Shown piece by piece: positions 1 to 12,548 of a stretch of DNA of 12,548 nt (its first letter is position 1; every line of letters begins with the position of its first letter). The stretch is from a virus. Its lineage: Duplodnaviria; Heunggongvirae; Uroviricota; Caudoviricetes. The position numbers were made by a program, and so were the translations under genes. The stretch covers positions 1-12,548 of IMG/VR virus record IMGVR_UViG_2778261640_000001; one strand, written 5' to 3'. Under the pieces are notes generated by a model. It worked only from the letters and a program-made list of their open reading frames with translations. It was not told where the DNA came from and did no database searches.

Positions 1-411
1 ATGCCTGCCCCCGTCGTCCTGATCCTTGCGGCCGGGCGTGGAGAGCGCTTTCTCGCCTCCGGGGGAAATACCCATAAGTGTATCGGCTGGCGTCAGTCCC
101 CGGAGGTTGCGCCTTATCGCTGGCCATTTGAAGAAAACGGGAGAACTTTCGACCTTGCGATTGAACCGCAGATTACGACTAATGATCTGCGTCTGATGTT
201 GAGGCTGACTCTTGCCGGCGGAGGAATAACAATTGCCACTCAGGAAACTTTCAGGCCATATATTGAAAGCGGTAAGCTTGTATCGCTGCTTGATGACTTT
301 CTTCCACAATTTCCGGGCTTCTATCTGTATTTCCCACAGCGTCGCAATATTGCACCAAAGCTCCGCGCCCTGATTGACTACGTCAAAGAATGGCGGCAGC
401 AATTGGCTTAA
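1..411 (+). CDS. LysR-family transcriptional regulator, C-terminal part (5' end outside window); probably host flank
   Basis: ORF runs from the window edge to TAA at 409-411. From about residue 40 the translation reads like a LysR effector-binding domain C-terminus (RWPFEENGRTF, NDLRLMLRLTLAGGGITIATQETF, IESGKLVSLLDDF, FYLYFPQRRNIAPKLRALIDYVKEW). The first 40 residues are less typical. Confidence 0.55.
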   Translation: MPAPVVLILAAGRGERFLASGGNTHKCIGWRQSPEVAPYRWPFEENGRTFDLAIEPQITTNDLRLMLRLTLAGGGITIATQETFRPYIESGKLVSLLDDFLPQFPGFYLYFPQRRNIAPKLRALIDYVKEWRQQLA

Positions 412-671
412 ATGTCTGCACCTGCACTGCCTGATGTCAGAACAGTATTTTGATGAATTGCCAAGGTTACAATGGCACAAATACGGCACAGGAGGAAACG
501 TGGTGTATTTAAATATGGGGTAACTCTTTGATTTTAATGGTGCGATAATAGGAATGAACATTACAAGTTAACACATTGATTTATAATAGATTATAATATT
601 CAAAAAATATAACTATACACATATCTATACACACTGCGTGCGTCGCTTGTTTTTCGCACAATTAAAAATAA

Positions 672-975
672 GAAAAAAATTTTTTTTCGAAAGAACTGTT
701 CACACTGTTCACCTTTCTTTTTTCTCCTTTTATTTCAGTATGATAGGTGGTGAATAATGGGTGAAGGGTGAACATTCGATTCTTCACCTCCGGCATTCTG
801 CCGGTGTGACTCATACCGGTGATTAATCCCCCGTACTAAAAATCGCACAGGGAGAAAAAAGTTTTTTTTGATTTGATTGTTCACACTGTTCACCTTTCGT
901 TTTTCTCTTTTAATTTCAGTGTGATAACGGGTGAATATACGGTGAAGGGTGAACAGTGGATTGTTCACCTTCGGG
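672..975. repeat. crr: crr-like cis replication region: two ~120-bp direct repeats (672-792 and 852-975) separated by ~60 bp, each carrying TGTTCACC / GGTGAACA octamers
   Basis: Hand alignment shows the two copies nearly identical (ctgttcacactgttcacctttc ... atttcagt.tgata ... ggtgaagggtgaaca ... ttcacct). This matches the recalled P4 crr layout and sits immediately downstream of the alpha gene. Confidence 0.75.
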
Positions 976-988
976 GGATTCAGGGATG

Positions 989-1012
989 AAAAAAGACCGG
1001 CAGATGCCGGTC
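989..1012 (-). terminator. Rho-independent terminator of the leftward (alpha) operon
   Basis: On the minus strand an 8-bp inverted repeat GACCGGCA/TGCCGGTC (995-1012) is followed by six T (989-994), 17 nt after the alpha stop codon. Confidence 0.65.
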
Positions 1013-1028
1013 AGATGAGTCATGAGGG

Positions 1029-3362
1029 TCAGGTTGTTGCAGGGTCGTCACATTTTGGCAGCCAGTCGCCGTAGCTTTCCTCTTTCAGCGTCAGGTTGGT
1101 CTGTATCCCCTGTTTGGTATGGCGCTTCTCGTAATTCAGCCCGTATTCCTTCAGCATCACCGGCAGCCCCAGCCCGAACATTTTCAGACTGAGTACATTC
1201 CGGTAGCCGTTTGCCTCCATGTAGGCCAGATAGGCGTGATAGAGGTATTTACGGTAGTTACGCGGGATGATACTGGCGTTCCCCATATACATGCCGCTGG
1301 TCTGCGGCAGGGTTTCCAGATAGCCGATAAAATCAAACGTCGGGTCGGCATCCCGTTTGATGTTCAGTGCCTCGTCTGAGTTCTGCTGGGACTGAAGCAG
1401 TGACCGGGCGAGCATCGGGTCGCTGAACTTCTGCATCAGGTGACGCACGATGACCGCCAGCTCGCGGGTGATTTTGTCCTTAAGCTGCGGGTCGCGCTCC
1501 TGCGGGGCTATCTGTTCCGGGAAGTGAATAATCACCCGCCGGCGTGACACGCCGCCGCTGCGGTCGGTGAAGCGCATCGGGTTATTGTTGACGGCCAGAA
1601 TCACCGCCGGGATATGCGTGGAGTACGCATCCCGGTATTTCGGGTCAACGGACACCGCATCGCCGCCGGTGATGGCCTTGAGTCCGGCTCCGTCGCCGCT
1701 CCATTTTTCCTGGTCCGGCAGGCGTATCAGTGAGAAGCCAGTTAACGCGGCACGTTCACGCGGGGATTCCAGCGTCTCGATGGTGGCCGACGTGGCGTTA
1801 TCCTCCCCGGCCAGCAGGGTGGCTATTTCGGCCATGATACTTTTGCCGCTGCCGCCGGGACCGGTCACCTCCAGAAAGAGCTGCCAGTCGTAGCGGTTTG
1901 CCAGCACCATAAACAGTGCGGCCAGAATCACGTCGCGTTTTTCCGCACGACCACCGGCGGCACGGTCAAGCCAGCGCCAGAACGCGGGAGCGTGGGTTTC
2001 CAGCGTTTCCCCTTCCACCGGCGGGGTGAAATCCACATCGCACAGGGTGCGCATCCAGTGTGACGGACTGTGCGGGTGGAACGAGCCGTTCTGCGTGTCG
2101 AGCACGCCGTTACGAAAGCCAATCAGGCGGCGGGAGGGGGCTTCCTGCTGCGGAATAATCAGCTTCAGGGTGTCCACCACGGAGGCCACCTTCCCGGAGG
2201 AGAACGGCGCGCGCAGCCGCTGAAACAGCCCGGCCACATCCCGGGCAAAGTCCTGTGGTGGCAGCACCTTCCAGACACCATTTTCATAGCGGGACAGAAG
2301 CTGGCCGTTGGCATCGACCGCGAGCGCCTCGCCGTAATGCTCATAGATACGCATGGCCTTTTCGCTGGTACTCATGGCGGAAAACTCCGCTTCGCTCATG
2401 GTGTCGAACGGGCTTTCAGCCGGTGGCCGGATGGCATCATAAATGGCCTTACGGGTGGCTTCCCCGCCGTACTGCGTGAAGGCATCATTCCAGTCACCGA
2501 AGACCGGCGGCAGGGCAACAACACCTTCACACGCATCTGCGGCTGCGGCGGCTTTTGTCTGGCCGTCACCGCTGAGGTCACGGTCAGCAGCAAGGACAAT
2601 CTGACAGGCCGGATGCTTCTGCCGGGCAAGGCTGGCCAGAGAAAGGAGGTTCACGGAAGAAAGCGCCACCATCACCGTTTCACCGGTCAGGTGATGTACG
2701 GTAAGTGCGGTCGCGTATCCCTCCGCTATCCACAGACGTTTTCCGGCCTGATTCTGTCCTTCAAGGGTGTGACAGGTGCCCCTGACCTGTCCGCCTTTCA
2801 GGGTGCGCTTACGGCCGTCAGCACTGATTAACTGAAGGTTAACCAGTTCGCCGCTGTCGTCATACAGTGGCACCACAAGGTCACCGGCGCGCCAGCTCAC
2901 GCCACCGGCTCTGTGTGTGCCGGTCAGCATCCGGCATTCCCGGCCGGGAAAGCCCTTGCGGGTCAGGTAGGCGTTACCGGTTCCGGGACGGGTTTTCGCC
3001 ATCAGGGTTTGTGCCAGTGCGGCGGCGTTCTTCCGGGCGGCTTCTGTTTCAGCACCGGCGGCAGCCGTCACTGCCGGGTCAGCCGGGGGCAGACTGCCGG
3101 TCACGGCAGCCACCTTTGTGGCCGCGTCGGACGGGGAAACACCAAACACCTTTTCAACCAGTTTCAGGCCGTCACCGGCACCACACTGATTGCAGTACCA
3201 GGTGCCGCGCCCCTCCCTGTCATCAAAACGGAAGCGGTCACTCCCGCCACAGACCGGACAGGGCTGATGACGGTTTTTCAGCACCTGAATCCCCAGCGCC
3301 GGGAGAATACGCGGCCAGTGACCGAGCGCATGGCTGACGGTGGCGGTTACGTTCATTTTCAT
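1029..3362 (-). CDS. alpha: P4 alpha-type primase-helicase / origin-binding replication protein
   Basis: 777-aa ORF. N-terminal zinc-ribbon primase signature (CPVCGGSDRFRFDD ... WYCNQCG), a Toprim-like acidic stretch (LAADRDLSGDGQ), Walker A GPGGSGKS and a long C-terminal domain. AGGAG sits 9 nt upstream of the ATG. Length equals recalled P4 alpha. Confidence 0.9.
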   Translation of the reverse strand: MKMNVTATVSHALGHWPRILPALGIQVLKNRHQPCPVCGGSDRFRFDDREGRGTWYCNQCGAGDGLKLVEKVFGVSPSDAATKVAAVTGSLPPADPAVTAAAGAETEAARKNAAALAQTLMAKTRPGTGNAYLTRKGFPGRECRMLTGTHRAGGVSWRAGDLVVPLYDDSGELVNLQLISADGRKRTLKGGQVRGTCHTLEGQNQAGKRLWIAEGYATALTVHHLTGETVMVALSSVNLLSLASLARQKHPACQIVLAADRDLSGDGQTKAAAAADACEGVVALPPVFGDWNDAFTQYGGEATRKAIYDAIRPPAESPFDTMSEAEFSAMSTSEKAMRIYEHYGEALAVDANGQLLSRYENGVWKVLPPQDFARDVAGLFQRLRAPFSSGKVASVVDTLKLIIPQQEAPSRRLIGFRNGVLDTQNGSFHPHSPSHWMRTLCDVDFTPPVEGETLETHAPAFWRWLDRAAGGRAEKRDVILAALFMVLANRYDWQLFLEVTGPGGSGKSIMAEIATLLAGEDNATSATIETLESPRERAALTGFSLIRLPDQEKWSGDGAGLKAITGGDAVSVDPKYRDAYSTHIPAVILAVNNNPMRFTDRSGGVSRRRVIIHFPEQIAPQERDPQLKDKITRELAVIVRHLMQKFSDPMLARSLLQSQQNSDEALNIKRDADPTFDFIGYLETLPQTSGMYMGNASIIPRNYRKYLYHAYLAYMEANGYRNVLSLKMFGLGLPVMLKEYGLNYEKRHTKQGIQTNLTLKEESYGDWLPKCDDPATT

Positions 3363-3376
3363 GGTGTTGTTCTCCT

Positions 3377-3697
3377 TCAGTGCAGTACCGGCGCTTTTAT
3401 GTGACGGGCACAGAGTTCATCCATCACAACCAGCCCGAGAAAGGACAGCGACGGCGCGGCCTTCAGGGGGCCGGATTCCATTAAATCTTCCAGCAGGGCA
3501 CAGGCTATCTGACGCCCTTTTTCCTCACCGTGCTGGCGCAGATAAAAGCCTTCCAGCTCAGCGGCGATGGCCGCCTCCAGTGATTCAAGGGTGAGATGCG
3601 GGTAGCGGTGCTGACGTTCGCACACGGTCAGCCAGGCACAGGCGACAGCACGACGGTAAAGGGCTGCGCGTAAGACGGGCGGTAAGGGTGTTTTCAT
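3377..3697 (-). CDS. cnr: Cnr-like copy-number regulator (P4 orf106 equivalent)
   Basis: 106-aa ORF immediately upstream of alpha in the same operon, with GGGAGG 7 nt before the ATG. Position and length match recalled P4 cnr. Confidence 0.7.
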
Positions 3698-3832
3698 TTG
3701 CTTTCCTCCCTGTGACAGATGACTGCATTCCGTGCCGGTTGCATTAACTGATAAGGCATATCTGCGTCTCCTGAAGACGTGCGTATCCCTGCGCGAATAC
3801 GCACATTTAATTTTTCGGGGGTCGTTTTTTAA

Positions 3833-4288
3833 TTACAGATAATTGCGGTAACTGTTATCCGGGGTGGTTTCCGGGTCAGGCTCCATGCGGGGAATTTCCC
3901 GCCATTCCCGCGCCACCGGTGCCGCCCGGCTGACCGGAACAGGGGCCTGCGGGTAAATATCCAGATATTTTTCCCGCCATTTCTGTAATTCCGGGTCTCC
4001 GGCCATTTCTTTCAGTACCGCATGCCGGTTTACGGGGCTGCGTTTAAACAGGTCAGGACGGTCACAGGTAAATTCCCGCAGAAAACGCCCCAGCGGGATG
4101 TCTGTGGTGCGCCCGTCAGCGAGGATACGCACAAGGATACTGAATTTACGGCGGTACGGGTTCCAGACAATGTCCGGGCAGCGGTACGGCATTTCCCACG
4201 GAATACCGTCTTCCAGAATGCCGACCACGGCCACATCGGGAAAACCGGCAGAACGGTAAATCTCACCGGGCTGGGGAAAATCAAACAT
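3833..4288 (-). CDS. P4 orf151-like protein, function unknown
   Basis: 151-aa ORF with GGGGAGA upstream of the ATG. Its ATG overlaps the last codons of the upstream epsilon-like ORF, suggesting translational coupling. Length and position match P4 orf151. Confidence 0.65.
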   Translation of the reverse strand: MFDFPQPGEIYRSAGFPDVAVVGILEDGIPWEMPYRCPDIVWNPYRRKFSILVRILADGRTTDIPLGRFLREFTCDRPDLFKRSPVNRHAVLKEMAGDPELQKWREKYLDIYPQAPVPVSRAAPVAREWREIPRMEPDPETTPDNSYRNYL

Positions 4289-4568
4289 GCGTCCTGTCTC
4301 CCCGGTCTTTCTGCTGGGCGAGAAAATCGCGGCACAGGCCTTTGGCTTTCAGCTCATTCAGCACAAAATCAATATCTTCATTCAGGTAGCTGAAAATATG
4401 CGGAATGTAGAGCTGATGCAGGCCGGAGAGTTCACGGTGAATCAAATCACCCCCAACAAACTGGGATACGGCGCTGGCGCGGTTGAGCTTATGGTAAGCC
4501 TCAATGCTGAGGTGTTCACGGGCGTCATGACGCGCTGAGACGGTCTGAGGGGCTTTTTTATTACGCAC
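4281..4568 (-). CDS. epsilon: epsilon-like protein (P4 antirepressor position), 95 aa from a GTG start
   Basis: GTG at 4568-4566 is preceded by GGTGGTGGAGGTG and overlaps the kil stop. The track's longer 147-aa version would overlap kil out of frame and lacks a ribosome-binding site. Confidence 0.55.
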
Positions 4569-4758
4569 GGGACACCTCCACCACCGGCAGACGGGCAGCA
4601 AGGGAGAGCACATAGTCACGGACAAGGGAACGGCGGGCGCTGCGTTCATCACCGGCGACGGTGCGAAGCATACAGATACGGGGATGACGGTCTGCGCGAC
4701 GGACAGCCGCAAACACAAAGACAAATTCAGGGTGTGAGGGGGTAAGGGTTGTAGCCAT
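4561..4758 (-). CDS. kil: Kil-like 65-aa peptide, first translated gene downstream of PLE
   Basis: ATG at 4758-4756 is preceded by GGAGG at an 8-nt spacing and gives exactly 65 aa ([12 protein letters not shown]...VVEVSRA) to the TAA at 4563-4561. This is the 3' part of the longer eta frame. Confidence 0.6.
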
Positions 4759-5160
4759 GATGGCAGCCTCCGTTAGATAGCAGGTTACGCTATCGCCGGA
4801 GTTCTCACGCTCAATGGCGATAGCCCAGACGGGGGTGAGAATACCGGCTCTAACGGATACCGGCCAGCCCGGAGGCTGCCCCGCCTGAGCTACCATTGAC
4901 TCTGCGGCATAATGAGCGGACGCGGGCAGGATGCACGGAATGCCATCTGCACGACTGACCACACACCACACCATAATCTGGCGCTCTGTGGCGTTGATTG
5001 CGACACAAAAAAAGACGCATGGCGCGTCATATGTCGCCGTTAGATTGCTCGGGTTCTCACGCCCGGCTGCCGATTTTGCGGCAGCGGAAAAACTATATCC
5101 GCAAATGCCGGAAAAAGGCAAGCCAGAAAAAGGGACTTTTTGCAGAGCGGGCATCATCAT
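4561..5160 (-). CDS. eta: eta-like ORF (about 199 aa), same frame as kil, starting upstream of PLE and spanning the cI/seq region
   Basis: The in-frame ATGATGATG at 5160-5152 overlaps the vis stop. Starting at 5160 gives 199 aa. The frame stays open across seqA, the seqB region and seqC. The track's upstream start at 5205 lies inside vis. Confidence 0.4.
4770..4810 (-). promoter_or_regulatory. seqC-like target, complementary to seqB; overlaps the kil ribosome-binding site
   Basis: Minus strand reads gcgtgagaactccggcgatagcgtaacctgctatctaacgg. Its ends (gtgagaa ... tctaacgg) are complementary to the seqB candidate. Confidence 0.55.
4812..4900 (-). ncRNA. cI: CI-RNA-like immunity RNA; boundaries approximate, seqB core at 4835-4856
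   Basis: Minus-strand ccgttagagccggtattctcac (4856-4835) is complementary to both flanking elements. Exact ends cannot be set from sequence alone. Confidence 0.35.
5037..5062 (-). promoter_or_regulatory. seqA-like target, complementary to seqB, in the PLE leader
   Basis: Minus strand reads gcgtgagaacccgagcaatctaacgg, sharing gtgagaa and tctaacgg with seqC, both complementary to seqB. Confidence 0.55.
5092..5121 (-). promoter_or_regulatory. PLE-like sigma70 promoter of the leftward operon
   Basis: Minus strand -35 TTGCCT (5121-5116), 18-nt spacer, -10 TATAGT (5097-5092). The start would lie about 25 nt upstream of seqA. Confidence 0.5.
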
Positions 5161-5423
5161 GCGTCGTACCCCCGTTTGCGTCCGGCAATGCGCCCGGCCA
5201 TCCATGCGGTGACTTCTGAGTGCAGCCAGGCCACATTTTTACCGCCAAGACTCACCTGCGGCGGAAATTCCCCCTTACGGATGAGTTCATAGATGGTCGA
5301 GCGTGACAGGCCGCACAGGTGCATCACTTCCGGCAGACGTAAAAAACGCTCCTGCGTGATGTCCGGCAGCGGCATCAGTGGCGTCACAGGGGCGGGAGAC
5401 GGGGAAGAAAAAACAGCTTGCAT
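5157..5423 (-). CDS. vis: Vis-like AlpA-family helix-turn-helix regulator / excision factor
   Basis: 88-aa ORF with an AlpA-type motif ([44 protein letters not shown]). GAGG sits 8 nt upstream of the ATG. Length and position match P4 vis. Confidence 0.8.
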
Positions 5424-5525
5424 CGGGCTACCTCGTTAATGTCCATACAGCACCGGATAAGTCCGTCCGGCTTCGGGTAGCGCTTTATTTTGTGAATATT
5501 TTCAGCAGACGCAACAGGGGGGATT

Positions 5526-5543
5526 TGTTCCGGCAGCCTTACA
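5526..5543. promoter_or_regulatory. TGT-N12-ACA dyad, an Ogr/Delta-type activator site, upstream of vis (PLL-like late promoter)
   Basis: TGT (5526-5528), 12 nt, ACA (5541-5543), centred about 110 bp upstream of the vis ATG. Confidence 0.45.
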
Positions 5544-5570
5544 ATGCTTGTGTGTTTTTTGTTCATCTCC

Positions 5571-5600
5571 ACTTAAAGTCATTTAAAGCCACTTAAAGCA
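5571..5600. repeat. Three tandem 10-bp repeats (acttaaagtc / atttaaagcc / acttaaagca)
   Basis: Read directly between the PLL-side dyad and the ori iterons. Function unknown. Confidence 0.5.
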
Positions 5601-5702
5601 ATTCGTAATTTTTATAGTGAAATACAAATCGTTTTTTCTTATTCATTCCCGGCGAATTAATAAAAACAAACAGTAATAAACAGCACAAAAAGCCCATCAA
5701 CG

Positions 5703-5807
5703 GGTGAACAGTGGTGAACAGACGGTGAACAGTCATTACTGCGATTGTTCACCATTTAACTTACTGTATTACTTATCTTTTTTCTTATGGTGAACAGAGG
5801 TGAACAG
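5703..5807. other. ori: ori-like replication origin: six TGTTCACC-type iterons in direct and inverted orientation
   Basis: GGTGAACAG at 5703, 5713, 5724, 5789 and 5799, plus inverted TGTTCACC at 5746, the same octamer as in crr. Flanked by AAACAAACAGTAA direct repeats (about 5665 and 5821). Lies about 4.9 kb from crr. Confidence 0.7.
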
Positions 5808-5885
5808 TAAAATATAAAAAAACAAACAGTAAGCCGGTTTTTCCTGCGACCTTTTCCTGGCTTGCCGGTGTGAGGATGAGTCTCC

Positions 5886-5903
5886 TGTGTCAGGGCTGGC
5901 ACA
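5886..5903. promoter_or_regulatory. TGT-N12-ACA dyad, an Ogr/Delta-type activator site, of a Psid-like late promoter
   Basis: TGT (5886-5888), gtcagggctggc, ACA (5901-5903), centred about 80 bp upstream of the sid ATG. Confidence 0.55.
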
Positions 5904-5974
5904 TCTGCAATGCGTCGTGTTGTTGTCCGGTGTACGTCACAATTTTCTCAACCTGAAGTGACGAGGAGCCGAAA

Positions 5975-6709
5975 ATGTCTGACAACACCATCCCTGAATA
6001 TCTGCAATCCGCGCTGGCACAACTGGAAAAGGCCAGAGCCGCCCATCTTGAGAACGCCCGTCTGATGGATGAGACCGTCACGGCCATTGAACGGGCAGAG
6101 CAGGAAAAAAATGCGCTGGCGCAGGCCGACGGAAACGACGCTGACGACTGGCGCACGGCCTTTCGTGCAGCCGGTGGTGTCCTGAGCGACGAGCTGAAAC
6201 AGCGCCACATTGAGCGCGTGGCACGCCGGGAGCTGGTACAGGAATATGACAATCTGGCCGTGGTGCTGAATTTTGAACGCGAACGCCTGAAAGGGGCGTG
6301 TGACAGCACGGCCACCGCCTACCGGAAGGCACATCATCACCTTCTGAGTCTGTATGCAGAGCATGAGCTGGAACACGCCCTGAATGAAACCTGTGAGGCG
6401 CTTGTCCGGGCAATGCATCTGAGCATTCTGGTACAGGAAAATCCGCTCGCCAACACCACCGGCCATCAGGGCTACGTCGCACCGGAAAAGGCTGTCATGC
6501 AGCAGGTGAAATCATCGCTGGAACAGAAAATTAAACAGATGCAAATCAGCCTCACCGGCGAGCCGGTTCTCCGGCTGACCGGACTGTCAGCGGCAACACT
6601 CCCGCACATGGATTATGAGGTGGCAGGCACACCGGCACAGCGCAAGGTGTGGCAGGACAAAATAGACCAGCAGGGTGCAGAGCTTAAGGCCAGAGGACTG
6701 CTGTCATGA
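5975..6709 (+). CDS. sid: Sid-like external capsid size-determination scaffold
   Basis: 244-aa ORF, coiled-coil-like and rich in A/E/L/Q. GAGGAG sits 7 nt before the ATG. Length and position match P4 sid. Confidence 0.8.
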   Translation: MSDNTIPEYLQSALAQLEKARAAHLENARLMDETVTAIERAEQEKNALAQADGNDADDWRTAFRAAGGVLSDELKQRHIERVARRELVQEYDNLAVVLNFERERLKGACDSTATAYRKAHHHLLSLYAEHELEHALNETCEALVRAMHLSILVQENPLANTTGHQGYVAPEKAVMQQVKSSLEQKIKQMQISLTGEPVLRLTGLSAATLPHMDYEVAGTPAQRKVWQDKIDQQGAELKARGLLS

Positions 6710-7206
6710 TTTACTGCCCGTCGTGTGGACATGTTGCTCACACTCGTCGCGCACATTTCATGGACGATGGCACCAAGATAATGATTGCACAGTGCCGGAA
6801 TATTTATTGCTCTGCGACATTTGAAGCGAGTGAAAGCTTTTTCTCTGACAGTAAAGATTCAGGAATGGAATACATTTCAGGCAAACAGAGATACCGCGAT
6901 TCACTGACTTCTGCCTCCGGCAGTATGAAACGCCCGAAAAGAATGCTTGTTACCGGATATTGTTGTCGGAGATGTAAAGGCCTTGCACTGTCAAGAACAT
7001 CGCGGCGTCTGTCTCAGGAAGTCACCGAGCGTTTTTATGTGTGCACGGATCCGGGCTGTGGTCTGGTGTTTAAAACGCTTCAGACCATCAACCGTTTCAT
7101 TGTCCGCCCGGTCACACCGGACGAACTGGCAGAAAGCCTGCATGAAAAACAGGAACTGCCGCCAGTACGGTTAAAAACACAATCATATTCGCTGCGTCTG
7201 GAATGA
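6706..7206 (+). CDS. delta: Delta-like late-gene transactivator with two Ogr-type zinc-finger modules
   Basis: 166-aa ORF whose ATG overlaps the sid stop (ATGA). Two cysteine modules: CPSCGHVAH...CRNIYCSATF and CRRCKGLAL...CTDPGCGLVF. Confidence 0.85.
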   Translation: MIYCPSCGHVAHTRRAHFMDDGTKIMIAQCRNIYCSATFEASESFFSDSKDSGMEYISGKQRYRDSLTSASGSMKRPKRMLVTGYCCRRCKGLALSRTSRRLSQEVTERFYVCTDPGCGLVFKTLQTINRFIVRPVTPDELAESLHEKQELPPVRLKTQSYSLRLE

Positions 7207-7279
7207 GGGCTGTCGGTTAACACCGGCCGTCGCCGCACACCGTATTTTTATTCTTCAGCATGATGAGAAAGAGATAACG

Positions 7280-7852
7280 ATGGAAAGCACAGCCTTACAG
7301 CAGGCCTTTGACACCTGTCAGAATAACAAAGCAGCATGGCTGCAACGCAAAAATGAGCTGGCAGCGGCCGAACAGGAATACCTGCGGCTTCTGTCAGGAG
7401 AAGGCAGAAACGTCAGTCGCCTGGACGAATTACGCAATATTATCGAAGTCAGAAAATGGCAGGTGAATCAGGCCGCCGGTCGTTATATTCGTTCGCATGA
7501 AGCCGTTCAGCACATCAGCATCCGCGACCGGCTGAATGATTTTATGCAGCAGCACGGCACAGCACTGGCGGCGGCACTGGCACCGGAGCTGATGGGCTAC
7601 AGTGAGCTGACGGTCATTGCCCGAAACTGTGCCATTCAGCGTGCCACAGATGCCCTGCGTGAAGCCCTTCTGTCCTGGCTTGCGAAGGGGGAAAAAATTA
7701 ATTATTCCGCACAGGATAGCGACATTTTAACGACCATCGGATTCAGGCCTGACGCGGCTTCGGTGGATGACAGCCGTGAAAAATTCACCCCTGCGCAGAA
7801 CATGATTTTTTCGCGTAAAAGTGCGCAACTGGCATCACGTCAGTCTGTGTAA
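7280..7852 (+). CDS. psu: Psu-like polarity suppression / capsid decoration protein
   Basis: 190-aa ORF, last gene of the sid-delta-psu operon. Length matches P4 psu. Confidence 0.8.
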   Translation: MESTALQQAFDTCQNNKAAWLQRKNELAAAEQEYLRLLSGEGRNVSRLDELRNIIEVRKWQVNQAAGRYIRSHEAVQHISIRDRLNDFMQQHGTALAAALAPELMGYSELTVIARNCAIQRATDALREALLSWLAKGEKINYSAQDSDILTTIGFRPDAASVDDSREKFTPAQNMIFSRKSAQLASRQSV

Positions 7853-7888
7853 AATTCCCCGAAAATCCGCCTGTTTTTACTGAAAAAA

Positions 7889-7916
7889 GCCATGCATCGA
7901 TAAGGTGCATGGCTTT
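7889..7916 (+). terminator. Hairpin terminator candidate downstream of psu
   Basis: GCCATGCA (7889-7896), 9-nt loop, TGCATGGC (7906-7913), then TTTG. The T tract is short, so possibly a weak terminator. Confidence 0.45.
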
Positions 7917-8016
7917 GCATGCGTTTCCCTGCCTCATTTTCTGCAGACCGCGCCATTCCCGGCGCAGCCTGAGCGTGTCAGTACAACTGCATTAAAACCG
8001 CCCCACAAAGCGGGCG

Positions 8017-8035
8017 GGCGTGGCGGGGAGAGCAT
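8017..8035. other. cos: cos-like site (putative P2/P4-type cohesive end)
   Basis: GGCGTGGCGGGGAGAGCAT matches 16 of 19 positions of the P2/P4 cohesive end as I recall it (GGCGAGGCGGGGAAAGCAC, from memory). It lies between psu and the cargo, where P4 cos is expected. Confidence 0.4.
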
Positions 8036-8052
8036 TGCGCGCCAAGTAATTT

Positions 8053-9675
8053 TTAATTTATTTTTTTATAAAGGCCATCTAACCCAGGTTTCAAAAGAAA
8101 TTGAGATGGAGCCCCGTTCTTAAGATCACCTGAACCATTATACCGTTTCGTAGAATGCATTAGCATAATGCCTTTTCTTGCTCGTGTAATTCCTACGTAA
8201 TGAAGATTTATGCATTGCTGTTCATTTTCGAATACAACATCATAGCTTCCTTCTATGAAAACTCTTTTAGGCAAAATCCAATCATACAGATCCAAATGAA
8301 AAACAAAGTCAAACTCAAGACCTTTAGACTTATGTAACGTCATTATTTGTACTTCATCACTTCTAACATCCAAATAATTATTTTGCATCCTCGGAGTAAC
8401 TAATATCTCTGAAAGAGCGGACTTATGATGCTGCTCGATTTCAGTCCCTAAAAGAGTTACTACAATTTTATTTATTACGTCAATAAGAAAGGCATCTGTA
8501 ACACTTCTAACCTGCTTAATAGCCTTACGGATACGAGTAGCCTCGCTCCTTTTGACACTGCTTCCCAAAACCCCCTCCAAAATAGACTGAGCAGTTTTAT
8601 TTAAGTTATACCTGTAACATAATAAATCATTAACAAGACCAGAAACCTTACCACCAGCCTTTGTTAAATCATTATCCAAATAAGCCCTATTAGAAACAAC
8701 TAAATTATCAGAAACTAGCTCCGCGCAAGCATTGCTTCTTACCAATATAGCAATCTCCTTATTATCAGATATTGAAAATTTATTTTTTACATTATCAAGA
8801 ATTTCACCAATCCATTTAGCTATATCAATTTGATTGCCATCAACACATTTTCTATAAACAAAAATCTCATCACACGGAGCTAGTTGACATTCAAAATCTT
8901 TAATTCTATTGGCGTAATTTACTATAGATGGGTGACATCTGTGATTTACTGTAATTTCCTTATGACAGAAACCACTATCATTCATGAAATCTTTTAGTGA
9001 ATCCGAACTGCGGTGAGAATACAAATAAATTGATTGATCCAAATCACCAACGATAATAAGAGGCATCCCTAGCGTTGGTATGAACTTGAAAACCTGATGA
9101 GTAAAATAACCGGTATCCTGATACTCATCGACAAAAAAACCAATATACTTTGCCATTAAATACCGCTGACAAGAATATGATGTTCTAACTATATAAAAAG
9201 CCAAGTGAGGAAGGAAGTCTAAAATCAACATCCCCTTTAAATAAATATCCCTCAGAGAACCCATGCCCTCAAATGAAGTATTAGAATAAAAATCCACTCG
9301 GTCAAAGTACTTATTTGTCTTATCTTTTAATTCTTGAGAAAGATCTATATACTTTACTACTTCGAGAGCGCTTTCGTTTCTGCCCCATACTTGCCTTACA
9401 AAAGGTAATATTATTTCGTTAATGAAAAACTTATCAATAGTACCAAAGAAGCTAGAATTTAACTCTGCTCCCAATTTTCTACATCTGGATTTTAGCTCCT
9501 CGCTGGATTTATTCGTATATGATAACGCAACAACTCCCTGATAATCCTTGGAATGGGATAAACAGGCAGCAATCTTATGGACGAGTATTGTTGTTTTACC
9601 ACTTCCTGGGCATGCAGTTATAACCAGATTACCTTCGTAATCAATTGCATCTAACTGTTCCTTAGTTAGCTTCAT
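8053..9675 (-). CDS. gajB: UvrD/PcrA/Rep-like SF1 helicase, GajB-like partner of a class 2 OLD nuclease
   Basis: 540-aa ORF with all SF1 helicase motifs read by eye: I ACPGSGKTT, Ia ALSYTNKSSEEL, II FVDEYQDT, III IIVGDLDQSIY, IV VNHRCHPSIVNYAN, V IMTLHKSKGLEFDFVF, VI YVGITRARKG. ATGA overlap with the upstream gene and GAGGTGA ribosome-binding site. AT-rich. Confidence 0.75.
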   Translation of the reverse strand: MKLTKEQLDAIDYEGNLVITACPGSGKTTILVHKIAACLSHSKDYQGVVALSYTNKSSEELKSRCRKLGAELNSSFFGTIDKFFINEIILPFVRQVWGRNESALEVVKYIDLSQELKDKTNKYFDRVDFYSNTSFEGMGSLRDIYLKGMLILDFLPHLAFYIVRTSYSCQRYLMAKYIGFFVDEYQDTGYFTHQVFKFIPTLGMPLIIVGDLDQSIYLYSHRSSDSLKDFMNDSGFCHKEITVNHRCHPSIVNYANRIKDFECQLAPCDEIFVYRKCVDGNQIDIAKWIGEILDNVKNKFSISDNKEIAILVRSNACAELVSDNLVVSNRAYLDNDLTKAGGKVSGLVNDLLCYRYNLNKTAQSILEGVLGSSVKRSEATRIRKAIKQVRSVTDAFLIDVINKIVVTLLGTEIEQHHKSALSEILVTPRMQNNYLDVRSDEVQIMTLHKSKGLEFDFVFHLDLYDWILPKRVFIEGSYDVVFENEQQCINLHYVGITRARKGIMLMHSTKRYNGSGDLKNGAPSQFLLKPGLDGLYKKIN

Positions 9676-11372
9676 AATTCACCTCTAGCAATTTTCAGTG
9701 CATGTATTAGAGGTCTGGCTATATCTTTGCTCTTCAGTTCAGTTAAAAAAGCTTTTTTCTCTTTAATTAACTCACGCATACGTATAGCTTTTTTTCCTCT
9801 CAAATAATCAGCGGCATCATCTAGATTATCCTTACTTGCATAATCAAGAACATGCTTCGAAAAGTCATTAGCAAGATCTCCTTCAAGATCAAAAAAAGAT
9901 ATATAAACGCCGTTAGGATTTATTATTGGTGAAATGGTTCCCCACTTAGTATGCAAAGCTTTACTATCTATAGGAATACTTGAGTTTGGTTCTTTATTCT
10001 CTCCACACAGTGCTAACGCCCTATTTACACCAGCATATTGCCATTCATTCTTATGAGGTACTTTTGAAGCATCATTGTCTGTTCTTACGATCCAATTAAT
10101 ATTTAGAGCTGTTAATATTTTTCTATAAACTTCAAATTGGATACCATCAACAGAAAGAATGCTGATGTTATAATAATCAAGATCAATACTTAATGCTTTT
10201 GCTAATTCAGTGTAAAAAATCACCTCAGATGGTCCCTCGACCAAAAAAACCACGTTAGCAAAAAATGCCTCAGCAGGAATAATACTCATCCGGTAGCCCA
10301 TTCCATCCCATGCAGAGCTAATACAATCAGAACATCCATTACTTGCGGCTAGAGTCTCTCCATCATCATAGTATAGTTTTATGATTGAATCAGGTTTAAA
10401 ATTCACTGCAATTTGGGGTGAGTGGCTTGTAACGATTGCTTGGCCTGGAAGTTTATCGATTAAATAGGCCGCCAATTTTCTTTGCTGGTGAGGAAATAGA
10501 TGTGCTTCCGGTTCCTCTATACAATAGATCACTACTTCACTTTCAACATCATGCTCGCGAACACTTTTTGCTTTCCATAACGCAAGAAGGATTTGGTTAT
10601 TAAACCCATCGCCACCAAGCATTAGTTTCTTCCCATTTGTATTCGCACTTAATTCTAATTTCTCTATAAACTGGTCAATCCCTATTGCACCAGTATCAAG
10701 TTGAACAGTTAATCTATCATGAGTATAGGATAACTTTCTAAGTTCCTCGTTAAGCTCTTCTGTTGCTGATGCAACATAACTTATTCCTTTAACTTTTTCA
10801 TTTACTTCAGTAAGTAGCTTATTTAATTCAGTAAAAACCGCCCCATCATTTTCAGTATCCTTTTCACTACGAACTTCTTGCGCCAATCTTAAAAGATGCT
10901 TCTTTTCAATTTTAATGTATTTTTCAAGATCTCTTTGCGAATTTATATACCTTAGACTTAAACACTTTAAGTAAAATCTATTAGGAACCTCATCAAAATT
11001 GTTATGTTCATGACTAAGTAATATCTTGTAATCCATAGTTAATGATGAAGCAAGATACTTAATGTATGTTTCCCCTTCATCGCTAACATACCCTCCTAAT
11101 TTAGATATTACAGCATCTTCACTAACATCTGTAAACTTGATAGTGATTTCTATATTTTCAACCTGTTCACCTGTCGAATTTACATGAAAGTCATTGCTTT
11201 TTGGTTCTAGATCTAATTCAGATAAACTTTTATCAAGTAATAATCGAATGGCATATAATAGGTTGGTCTTTCCAACATCATTTGCACCTATAATCAAATT
11301 AGTTTCATTAAAATTAATAACAGCATCACAGTAATTCCTGAATCCTTTAATATAAACAGTTTCAATTCTCAT
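9672..11372 (-). CDS. gajA: OLD-family ABC-ATPase plus Toprim nuclease, GajA-like
   Basis: 566-aa ORF. Walker A GANDVGKTN near the N-terminus, Walker B / H-loop (VVIYCIEEPEAHLFP ... IVTSHSPQ), C-terminal Toprim motifs (VVFLVEGPSEV, WIVRTDNDAS). The ATG directly follows the int stop (TAAATG). AT-rich. Confidence 0.75.
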   Translation of the reverse strand: MRIETVYIKGFRNYCDAVINFNETNLIIGANDVGKTNLLYAIRLLLDKSLSELDLEPKSNDFHVNSTGEQVENIEITIKFTDVSEDAVISKLGGYVSDEGETYIKYLASSLTMDYKILLSHEHNNFDEVPNRFYLKCLSLRYINSQRDLEKYIKIEKKHLLRLAQEVRSEKDTENDGAVFTELNKLLTEVNEKVKGISYVASATEELNEELRKLSYTHDRLTVQLDTGAIGIDQFIEKLELSANTNGKKLMLGGDGFNNQILLALWKAKSVREHDVESEVVIYCIEEPEAHLFPHQQRKLAAYLIDKLPGQAIVTSHSPQIAVNFKPDSIIKLYYDDGETLAASNGCSDCISSAWDGMGYRMSIIPAEAFFANVVFLVEGPSEVIFYTELAKALSIDLDYYNISILSVDGIQFEVYRKILTALNINWIVRTDNDASKVPHKNEWQYAGVNRALALCGENKEPNSSIPIDSKALHTKWGTISPIINPNGVYISFFDLEGDLANDFSKHVLDYASKDNLDDAADYLRGKKAIRMRELIKEKKAFLTELKSKDIARPLIHALKIARGEL

Positions 11373-12548
11373 TTACATTTTCCTTAAAAATAACGTTGAA
11401 GAGAAAAAGTTCAACATTTTCCTTCTTTCTTCAATGAATGTTGCATGATTATATGTACCGCGAATTCTATTACTATCAACGTGAGCGAGCTGTAATTCAA
11501 TATATTGAGAATTAAAGCCAGCATCATGTAAAATAGTTGACATCATATGCCTAAATCCATGACCTGTAAGCCTGCCACCGTATCCAAGTCGCTTTATAAG
11601 CTGATTGATAGCGGCCTCACTCATTGGCTTACTCGGATCATTTCGCCCAGGAAAAACATAACGATAGTTGCCTGTCATTGTCTTGAGTTCATTGAGTAAA
11701 TCTAACGCCTGAGTAGACAATGGCACAAGATGCGGCCTGCGCATTTTCATCCTTTCAGCAGGAATTTCCCAAATAGCGTTATCCAGATCAAATTCTTGCC
11801 ATAATGCCGCGCGTAATTCGATGGTTCTCACGCCCGTAATCATCAGTAATTTCGTTGCTATCTGGACAATTTTACTCCCGGTGTAACTCTCTAAGGCACG
11901 CAGAAATTCGGGTATCTCATCAGCTTTTAAGAACGGGAAATGATTGGATTGATGCACTTCGAGAGCGCTGGAGAGATCCGCAGCAGGATTGTACTCCGCC
12001 CTACCTGTTGCAATTGCGTAGCGAAACACCTCGGAGCAACGCTGCCGCACTTTACGCATTTTCTCCAACGCACCACGTTTCTCAATTTTACGCAGTACGT
12101 TCAGCAGCTCTAGCGGTTTAATCTCTCCCACAGGCCTTGTTCCAACATAAGGAAAAATGTCGTTCTTAAACGCTTCCATGATGTCTGATGCGTATCCAGC
12201 TGACCATTTAGCAGATTTAAGTTGATGCCACTCTCTGGCGATCTTTTCGAAGGCGTTCTCTGACTCTGTTTGCAGAGCCAGCTTTTGCTCTTTTCGAACC
12301 TCACTAGGGTTCTTTCCTTCTGCCACAAGTTTTCGAGCTTCATCACGACGGGAACGAGCATCGGCAAGGGTGATCGTTGGGTAAACGCCAAGCGAGATCA
12401 TCTTGGGTTTACCGGCGTAGCGATAGCGGAACCGCCAGCTCTTGCTTCCATTAGGTTCTATAAGCAATGACAAGCCTTGCCCATCCCCAAGCGTATAGGG
12501 TTTATCTTCAGGCTTAGCGCGGCGAATCTGCATATCGTTTAAAGGCAT
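11373..12548 (-). CDS. int: P4-type tyrosine integrase; ATG at the window edge
   Basis: 391-aa ORF. N-terminus MPLNDMQIRRAKPEDKPY is typical of P4-family integrases. The C-terminal catalytic region carries HGFRHMMST and LAHVDSNRIRGTYNHA with the likely catalytic tyrosine. Confidence 0.85.
   Translation of the reverse strand: MPLNDMQIRRAKPEDKPYTLGDGQGLSLLIEPNGSKSWRFRYRYAGKPKMISLGVYPTITLADARSRRDEARKLVAEGKNPSEVRKEQKLALQTESENAFEKIAREWHQLKSAKWSAGYASDIMEAFKNDIFPYVGTRPVGEIKPLELLNVLRKIEKRGALEKMRKVRQRCSEVFRYAIATGRAEYNPAADLSSALEVHQSNHFPFLKADEIPEFLRALESYTGSKIVQIATKLLMITGVRTIELRAALWQEFDLDNAIWEIPAERMKMRRPHLVPLSTQALDLLNELKTMTGNYRYVFPGRNDPSKPMSEAAINQLIKRLGYGGRLTGHGFRHMMSTILHDAGFNSQYIELQLAHVDSNRIRGTYNHATFIEERRKMLNFFSSTLFLRKM

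Follow-up and report, generated by a model that had tools for sequence, protein, structure and literature searches.

A probable cos region bordering a Gabija cargo in an integrated P4-like satellite

We analyzed a stretch of viral DNA of 12,548 nucleotides (IMG/VR record IMGVR_UViG_2778261640_000001, positions 1 to 12,548; hereafter the window) in which a P4-type backbone is joined to an antiphage cargo and an integrase gene. Positions 674 to 8016 correspond to positions 4291 to 11624 of phage P4 at 97.9% identity and take in crr, alpha, the immunity region, the sid-delta-psu late operon, and the right genome end. The P4-like core set is present in the P4 order, comprising alpha (primase), the epsilon/cI region with the C4 RNA, sid, delta, psu, and int, as judged from the 97.9% match over 7.3 kb, Pfam matches to Psu and Ogr_Delta, Rfam RNAs, and the annotation of a near-identical locus (L236). 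The last gene of the late operon, psu, lies at 7280-7852 on the + strand (Pfam Psu, E = 3e-88). On the - strand between 4813 and 5098, matches at the Rfam gathering score mark the C4 antisense RNA (4813-4900), isrK (5008-5085), and the c4 a1b1 target (c4-a1b1; 5046-5098). Judged by these matches, the P4 immunity RNA system appears to be intact.

The element spans about 12.17 kb, compared with 11.62 kb for P4. In locus L236, tRNA-Thr lies beyond the integrase. The 3' end of this tRNA-Thr, next to proA, forms the att core ATGGTGCCGATAATAGGA, which is repeated at the alpha-side end of the element (1704-1721 and 13861-13878 of L236). An exact search of the window for this att core returned no match because the window copy carries a 1-nt deletion; the attR core at 536-552 reads ATGGTGCGATAATAGGA, one C fewer than the tRNA copy. 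The first 535 nt of the window, which hold a fragment of a LysR-type gene, are unlike the flank in DETEC-P793, where the vat island follows.

The cargo lies between the late operon and the integrase. The gene gajB (8053-9675, - strand) encodes the UvrD-type helicase of Gabija and matches PADLOC GajB over its full length (3.4e-224) as well as Pfam UvrD-helicase and UvrD_C; its stop codon (8053-8055) faces the late operon. The gene gajA (9672-11372, - strand) encodes the OLD-family ATPase/TOPRIM nuclease, again with a full-length PADLOC match (GajA, 3.9e-261) and with Pfam matches to AAA_15 and OLD-like_TOPRIM. By these profile matches, the cargo is a Gabija defense system. The tyrosine integrase gene follows at 11373-12548 on the - strand (Pfam Arm-DNA-bind_3, Phage_int_M, and Phage_integrase). 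As the integrase stop codon abuts the gajA start codon (TAAATG on the - strand, 11370-11375) and gajA and gajB overlap by 4 nt (9672-9675), int-gajA-gajB may form one transcription unit reading toward the psu side.

On the + strand at 8017-8035, 17 nt from the gajB stop codon, lies GGCGTGGCGGGGAGAGCAT. The preliminary description of this DNA had picked out a cos-like 19-mer here, 18 bp from the stop codon of a helicase gene, and proposed it as the packaging site; the helicase gene is gajB, and the stated spacing matches the one measured. When the P2/P4 cohesive end, GGCGAGGCGGGGAAAGCAC, was searched for with up to 3 mismatches, 8017-8035 was the sole match in the window, and 0 of 200 shuffles matched. 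The 19-mer fits the family form GGCGNGGCGGGGANAGCAN of the P2/186/P4 cohesive end. It departs from the P2/P4 sequence at 3 of 19 positions, namely 5 (A>T), 14 (A>G), and 19 (C>T), and from the end of phage 186, GGCGTGGCGGGGAAAGCAT, at position 14 only. At positions 5 and 19, and in the TGCGCGCCA that comes next, the window agrees with phage 186 and not with P2/P4, and G14 occurs in neither reference helper (P2 or 186). We refer below to this form of the 19-mer as the T5/G14/T19 (or T/G/T) allele.

In a blastn comparison with deposited phages, window positions 7850-8016 match P4 positions 11458-11624 at 95.8%, and the match runs to the final base of the P4 record, which is linear. That base thus aligns to 8016, and the record opens with the homologous 19-mer GGCGAGGCGGGGAAAGCAC, so that the 19-mer of the window is positioned like the experimentally defined ends of P4. 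The P2 and 186 records annotate the homologous 19-mers as cohesive ends. Once the ends of P4, P2, and 186 are circularized and aligned with the window, all share TGCATTAAAACCG...AAGCGGGC, then the 19-mer, then TGCGCGC; the stretch can also be written ACTGCATTAAAACCG...AAGCGGGC, which is present in all four. The consensus of 89 satellite and 105 helper sequences likewise contains the flanking core, with ...TGCATTAAAA...AAGCGGGC before the 19-mer and TGCGCGC after it. The cos core common to P2, 186, P4, and the window (ACTGCATTAAAA...AAGCGGGC, the 19-mer, and TGCGCGC) therefore occupies 7986-8042 on the + strand, as delimited by alignment, conservation profile, and helper consensus. A "55-bp core" of the P2/P4 cos is described in the literature, cited from Ziermann & Calendar 1990 (PMC5694545, PMC9594776), and by alignment, the core at 7986-8042 is its counterpart.

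Conservation among satellites delimits these features further. We compared 89 distinct satellite sequences spanning 47-99% Psu identity to the window Psu. Near-invariant blocks occupy 7887-7924, 7986-7997, and 8008-8042, with few variable positions inside them. On the cargo side, conservation in these 89 sequences is at least 98% at 8037-8042, drops to 18-79% from 8043, and is below 50% from 8045. In 1,105 of 5,426 E. coli genomes, homology to 7850-8055 stops at 8041-8049. The conserved cos block is thus joined to the cargo by a junction of 10 nt (8043-8052), marked by the drop in conservation and by the homology ends in E. coli. The cargo slot thus runs from cos to int, as had been surmised from the sequence: the conserved block ends at 8042, 10 nt before the gajB stop codon, and on the other side the gajA start abuts the stop codon of int.

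Between the hairpin region discussed below and the cos core lies a G+C inverted repeat, GCGCC(N6)GGCGC, at 7950-7965 on the + strand, recognized in the satellite profile; its arms are 80-98% conserved, and its loops are variable. A related GCGCCAG-NN-CTGGCGC occurs in phage 186 and in most helper contigs but not in P2. A second G+C-rich hairpin, within the core at 7998-8017, was called terminator-like on the - strand by the terminator scan, but we do not regard it as conserved: the 3' arm is fixed and the 5' arm variable, between 0 and 6 of its 6 pairs are complementary depending on the locus, and its folding z-scores are -0.2 and -0.6. From the gajB stop codon to the 19-mer there is no terminator-like site. 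The first ones lie inside the cos region, at 8017-7998 followed by TTTTAAT and then at the - strand of the hairpin after psu, followed by TTTTTT at about 7885-7880.

Taken together, the homology to the P4 record ends and to the annotated ends of P2 and 186, the conservation, and the architecture described in passages of Rousset et al. 2022 (PMC9122126) bear out the proposed packaging site. The best explanation of 7886-8042 is that an integrated P4-like satellite has its cos (packaging) region here, a reading to which we give a probability of roughly 85% on these sequence comparisons. The comparison with P2/P4 cos that had been suggested as a check found similarity, with 16 of 19 positions identical and a shared flanking core. 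The number of differences from P2/P4 had been given correctly as three, and these differences are genuine.

The left part of the region poses a separate question. Beginning 34 nt after the psu stop codon (7850-7852), a hairpin with a 13-pair stem and a 5-nt loop occupies 7886-7916 on the + strand. Its arms at 7886-7896 and 7906-7916 form a perfect inverted repeat, and the RNA fold has a free energy of -21.5 kcal/mol (z = -4.5), equaled or bettered by 0 of 200 shuffles. The 8-bp-stem hairpin reported after psu in the preliminary description is the G+C-rich core of this stem (7889-7896/7906-7913). It had been interpreted as an operon terminator, which would be only part of its role. The hairpin resembles a terminator on both strands, being preceded by an A-run and followed by TTTG on the + strand and followed by TTTTTT on the - strand; in most satellites the sequence after the stem reads GGTTTTGCATGCGTTTT, TTTTGCAT.

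A simpler account of the block follows from these features, in which the hairpin is only the intrinsic terminator of sid-delta-psu, perhaps a bidirectional one that also stops gajAB, and the functional cos is the approximately 55-bp core alone. The strength of the stem, its place 34 nt after psu, the A-run before it, the T-rich sequence after it with TTTTTT on the - strand, and the GGTTTTGCATGCGTTTT that follows it in most satellites all suit such a role, and the literature describes a 55-bp core (PMC5694545, PMC9594776). Among 48 distinct satellite sequences, the pair 7889:7913 is G-U in 35, G-C in 9, and A-U in 4, and it is unpaired in none. Furthermore, the strong hairpin is missing from P2. 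The same strength of -21.5 kcal/mol is found in the window and in P4, the P2 block reaches -7.7 kcal/mol (z = -0.5), and that of 186 folds differently; the strong hairpin is specific to satellites.

Other observations sit poorly with a terminator and nothing else. The terminator scan made no call here on either strand, as the + strand tail TTTGCATG has 4 T in 8 and the - strand TTTTTT comes after a 9-nt loop or an interrupted stem. A stem with a U-tract would suffice for termination, yet the stem sequence is invariant, without compensatory changes, across satellites with Psu at 50-65% identity. The hairpin is near-invariant in the 89 satellite sequences, the 8 nt outside the stem (TTGCATGC) are equally conserved, and the block at 7887-7924 is almost invariant even where satellite Psu is only 47-67% identical. 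In the covariation analysis of the 48 distinct sequences, 6 of 13 pairs are invariant, 3 more are nearly so, and two-sided changes occur in none; 90.5% of cells are paired and the covariation score is reached by 182 of 500 shuffles, so that with a stem that hardly varies the analysis speaks for neither account.

In the window the motif TGCAT occurs at 7893-7897, 7906-7910, and 7916-7920, that is, at -124, -111, and -101 from the cut site, with a fourth copy at -29. In helpers it occurs at -124 or -120, -111, -101, and -29. The mean number of TGCAT motifs per sequence between -135 and -95 is 3.2 in satellites and 2.5 in helpers, compared with 0.0-0.1 in control windows (0.02-0.08 for the helper controls, which are equal in size), and P2 and 186 show the motifs too. 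The block adjoins the old transcript starts in P2 and comes after the terminator t95b in 186; it is an operon terminator in neither helper. Since TGCAT stands at the same distances from the cut site in helpers, with no operon end there, the hairpin block is probably part of an extended cos. We consider that the distal TGCAT cluster (7893-7920, + strand), a candidate distal recognition block picked out by the offsets shared with helpers, probably belongs to an extended asymmetric cos recognized by the helper terminase, and that the satellite hairpin probably both stops transcription after the late operon, ahead of cos, and forms part of the DNA recognized by the terminase. The hairpin as a terminator and nothing more is possible but doubtful. 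Thus, of the earlier interpretation, the terminator-like features stand, and a terminator role alone fits badly with the invariant block, the TGCAT offsets shared with helpers, and the scan. In the literature covered, no report of P2 cos repeats or of a psu terminator was found.

We then consider the differences at positions 5, 14, and 19, which the preliminary description had tentatively attributed to helper specificity. An exact scan found the 19-mer in 108 IMG/VR contigs. In 86 of these, psu ends 167-205 nt upstream of the 19-mer, identifying them as satellites, and in 19 a P2/186-type portal gene lies downstream, identifying them as helpers; the remaining 3 are too short for classification. 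In 13 of the 19 helper contigs, the portal gene ends about 190-203 nt away, the canonical helper position. Given 108 contigs, 86 with the 19-mer after psu and 19 with it before portal, the sequence is best seen as a natural cos allele rather than a decayed site.

In the other 6 helper contigs, the portal gene ends 1.8-2.9 kb from cos, which implies an insertion between cos and portal in these helpers. This position is a known hotspot in P2-like phages (PMC5694545).

The allele also extends beyond close relatives. A Psu-based scan of one genome per species gave 6 loci, with genus labels, and the identical 19-mer occurs in P4-like elements of genomes labeled Enterobacter, Citrobacter, Kluyvera, and Tatumella, where Psu is 60-65% identical and the flanks have diverged. 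Identity across such divergence, together with presence in helpers, indicates that the 19-mer is under selection. This makes it very improbable that the satellite is a defective remnant unable to move and its cos a relic whose substitutions abolish cleavage. Some observations do lean toward such a relic: the attR core has a 1-nt deletion, psu is frameshifted in a sister locus, and the identical 38-nt core is found in none of the 50,697 deposited records of isolated phages, where the best match is 94.6%. However, besides the 108 viral contigs and the elements of four genera that carry the allele unchanged between diverged flanks, the surrounding cos blocks are fully conserved, and the window retains every P4 backbone gene and the C4/isrK RNAs in intact form.

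A sample not selected for the allele was obtained from a degenerate scan with GGCGNGGCGGGGANAGCAN, in which the matches listed comprise 94 helpers and 13 satellites. Among these, helpers carry A/A/C (36), T/T/T (26), T/A/T (16), A/T/C (9), A/T/T (5), and A/A/T (2) at positions 5/14/19, whereas satellites carry A/A/C (6), T/G/T (4), G/G/T (2), and T/A/T (1). All three positions are therefore polymorphic among helpers and satellites alike, in many combinations, and among the matches listed G14 is confined to satellites, 6 of 13 carrying it against 0 of 94 helpers (Fisher p = 9e-7). An exact 35-mer search of complete E. coli genomes found the window allele in 46, a variant with A at -1 in 93, and the P2/P4 allele in 2,127. 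All 8 T/G/T loci inspected in E. coli are satellites, with different integrases; their cargos include Gabija, a PARIS-like pair of DUF4435 protein and ATPase, ATP-binding proteins, and a hypothetical protein.

These distributions bear on whether the substitutions fit a particular helper, one whose terminase requires T5/G14/T19 or whose own cos carries it. In favor of such a fit, 19 helper-type contigs have the identical 19-mer before portal, and two of the three changes, together with the following TGCGCGCCA, match 186 and not P2/P4. The balance is otherwise. The allele is mostly a satellite one (86 satellite versus 19 helper contigs), G14 is absent from the 94 helpers among the matches listed, the E. 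coli genomes with the allele (46 + 93) are far outnumbered by those with the P2/P4 allele and yielded only satellites at the inspected loci, and positions 5, 14, and 19 vary in many combinations. Moreover, phage 186 is able to package P4, whose allele is that of P2 and differs from the 186 end at positions 5 and 19. Because the allele is found mostly in satellites while most potential helpers carry others, the positions appear to be tolerated rather than matched. Strict matching to a helper is thus unlikely, and the earlier attribution gives way to a recurrent natural allele found mainly in satellites; on the sequences compared, the three differences are a natural cos allele at three tolerated positions.

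The backbone around this allele is mosaic. In sister E. coli loci (VR50, a7, and LT883142), the psu-cos-gajBA-int block (7295-12548) is 99.3-99.5% identical to the window, and delta encodes a single-domain protein of 81 aa, compared with the P4-type delta of 166 aa in the window (window region 6829-7294). The shorter delta places a mosaic join in the backbone just left of psu. Recombination exactly at cos was considered for these sister loci and rejected, as the block moves as a unit with its breakpoint between delta and psu.

The base immediately before the cut site (-1) tracks the lineage of the backbone. It is G alongside P4-type Psu in the window, in loci L062 and L067, in VR50-type loci, and in 4 P4-type contigs that have the P2/P4 allele, and it is A alongside divergent Psu in 89 contigs; the T/G/T 19-mer occurs on both backbones. 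In the window, the flank beside the three differences from P4 is 96% identical to that of P4, and the bases at the three positions are those of the other lineage. With the caution due to small numbers, this looks like an exchange at or within the cohesive end.

The int-gajAB module is rare, occurring in 18-19 of 5,426 E. coli genomes, and the integrase allele is present in 19 of 5,426. Divergent satellites that carry the T/G/T cos allele encode the closest relatives of the integrase (86-89% identity). Among them is locus L036, a P4-like satellite whose Psu is 52% identical to that of the window and whose slot holds a GajA-like gene. About 2.8 kb of its DNA matches window 9766-12548 at 74%, a stretch that takes in the gajA region and the integrase, and the integrase protein is 89% identical. 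This homology suggests that an int-Gabija module may move between satellite lineages. In one of the 19 E. coli genomes with the integrase allele (strain PO06101), IS1 lies beside int, and the annotation shows no satellite genes past it. Homology in this locus starts at 11398, inside the last int codons, so the variable region reaches into the 3' end of int.

The architecture of the window is familiar from P4-like elements. In P4 itself (NC_001609 / X51522), cos lies between psu and the gop-beta-cII cargo, in the same position after psu and with the same hairpin, TGCAT motifs, and core; identity over the 167 bp preceding the cut site is 95.8%, and the P4 cargo likewise begins a few bases past TGCGCGC. 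The window differs from P4 in its 19-mer (positions 5, 14, and 19), in having T rather than C at position +20, in carrying Gabija instead of gop-beta-cII, and in its integrase, another allele that targets tRNA-Thr. P2 and 186 (Peduoviridae) have cos sites with 19-nt 5' cohesive ends, and they hold the core and the distal TGCAT motifs at -111 and -101 in common with the window. However, their right flank leads to portal and terminase genes and their left flank to cargo of the old/tin or tum/orf97 type, unlike the window, and the distal block of P2 lacks the strong hairpin. Passages of Rousset et al. 2022 place the psu-int hotspot of P4-like satellites beside cos, describe a core cos signal common to P2 and P4, and speculate that cohesive ends may promote exchange (PMC9122126); Moura de Sousa & Rocha 2021, in the passages covered, concur on a P4-like psu-int hotspot beside cos (PMC8628076). 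The order psu, cos, variable defense cargo, int in these accounts (PMC9122126, PMC8628076) is exactly that of the window, and Gabija is not among the examples named in the passages covered.

We propose that after excision and replication, the terminase (gpP and gpM) of a P2/186-family helper would recognize this region in the circular form of the satellite. Staggered nicks flanking 8017-8035 would then leave 19-nt 5' overhangs. The linear packaged genome would start with GGCGTGG..., continue into gajB-gajA-int, and end with sid-delta-psu, the hairpin block, and base 8016. The recognized region would be asymmetric, extending about 131 bp into the psu side, where it would include the TGCAT cluster, the G+C inverted repeat, and ACTGCATTAAAA...AAGCGGGC, and only 7 bp (TGCGCGC) into the cargo side. 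With so short a reach on the cargo side, foreign cargo such as Gabija could sit 10 nt from the conserved block. The hairpin would be the satellite form of the distal TGCAT cluster and may also stop transcription on either side of cos.

A functional analogy may be drawn with the cos of lambda (cosQ-cosN-cosB). The R sites of lambda are repeats bound by the small terminase, and the lambda overhang is 12 nt. In both systems, short repeats at roughly helical spacing would stand on one side of the nicking site. There is no sequence similarity between the two, the overhang is 19 nt in the window rather than 12, and binding of the P2 small terminase to TGCAT is putative.

These considerations can be joined into a more specific proposal, which we put forward tentatively and hold to be improbable as a whole: that the TGCAT cluster (-131 to -93) is a second packaging recognition element and that the 19-mer allele is exchanged through end joining at the cut site. 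Under this proposal, the cluster would be a so far undescribed cosB-like array for the small terminase, common to helpers and satellites, and satellites would have reshaped it into a two-way terminator insulating cos. The 19-mer allele would pass independently of its flanks by cohesive-end joining at the cut site. If so, the allele exchange would lend sequence-level support to the speculation on cos-end recombination in Rousset et al. (PMC9122126), as worded in the passages covered.

Overall, the site and its architecture are of an already known kind, a P4-like satellite cos beside swappable antiphage cargo. The extended cos and the allele exchange, as read from sequence comparison, would be modest additions. 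Among these, the map of conserved blocks of an extended cos should be useful for the design of P4 cosmids and for the annotation of satellites. As positions 5, 14, and 19 vary freely, scans for cos should use GGCGNGGCGGGGANAGCAN and not the P2 sequence. The picture of satellites as shuttles of defense systems has already been published. The island in the window is a P4-like satellite that retains all recognizable features of the packaging signal, and with these features kept, its Gabija system would be expected to move between cells inside helper-phage capsids.
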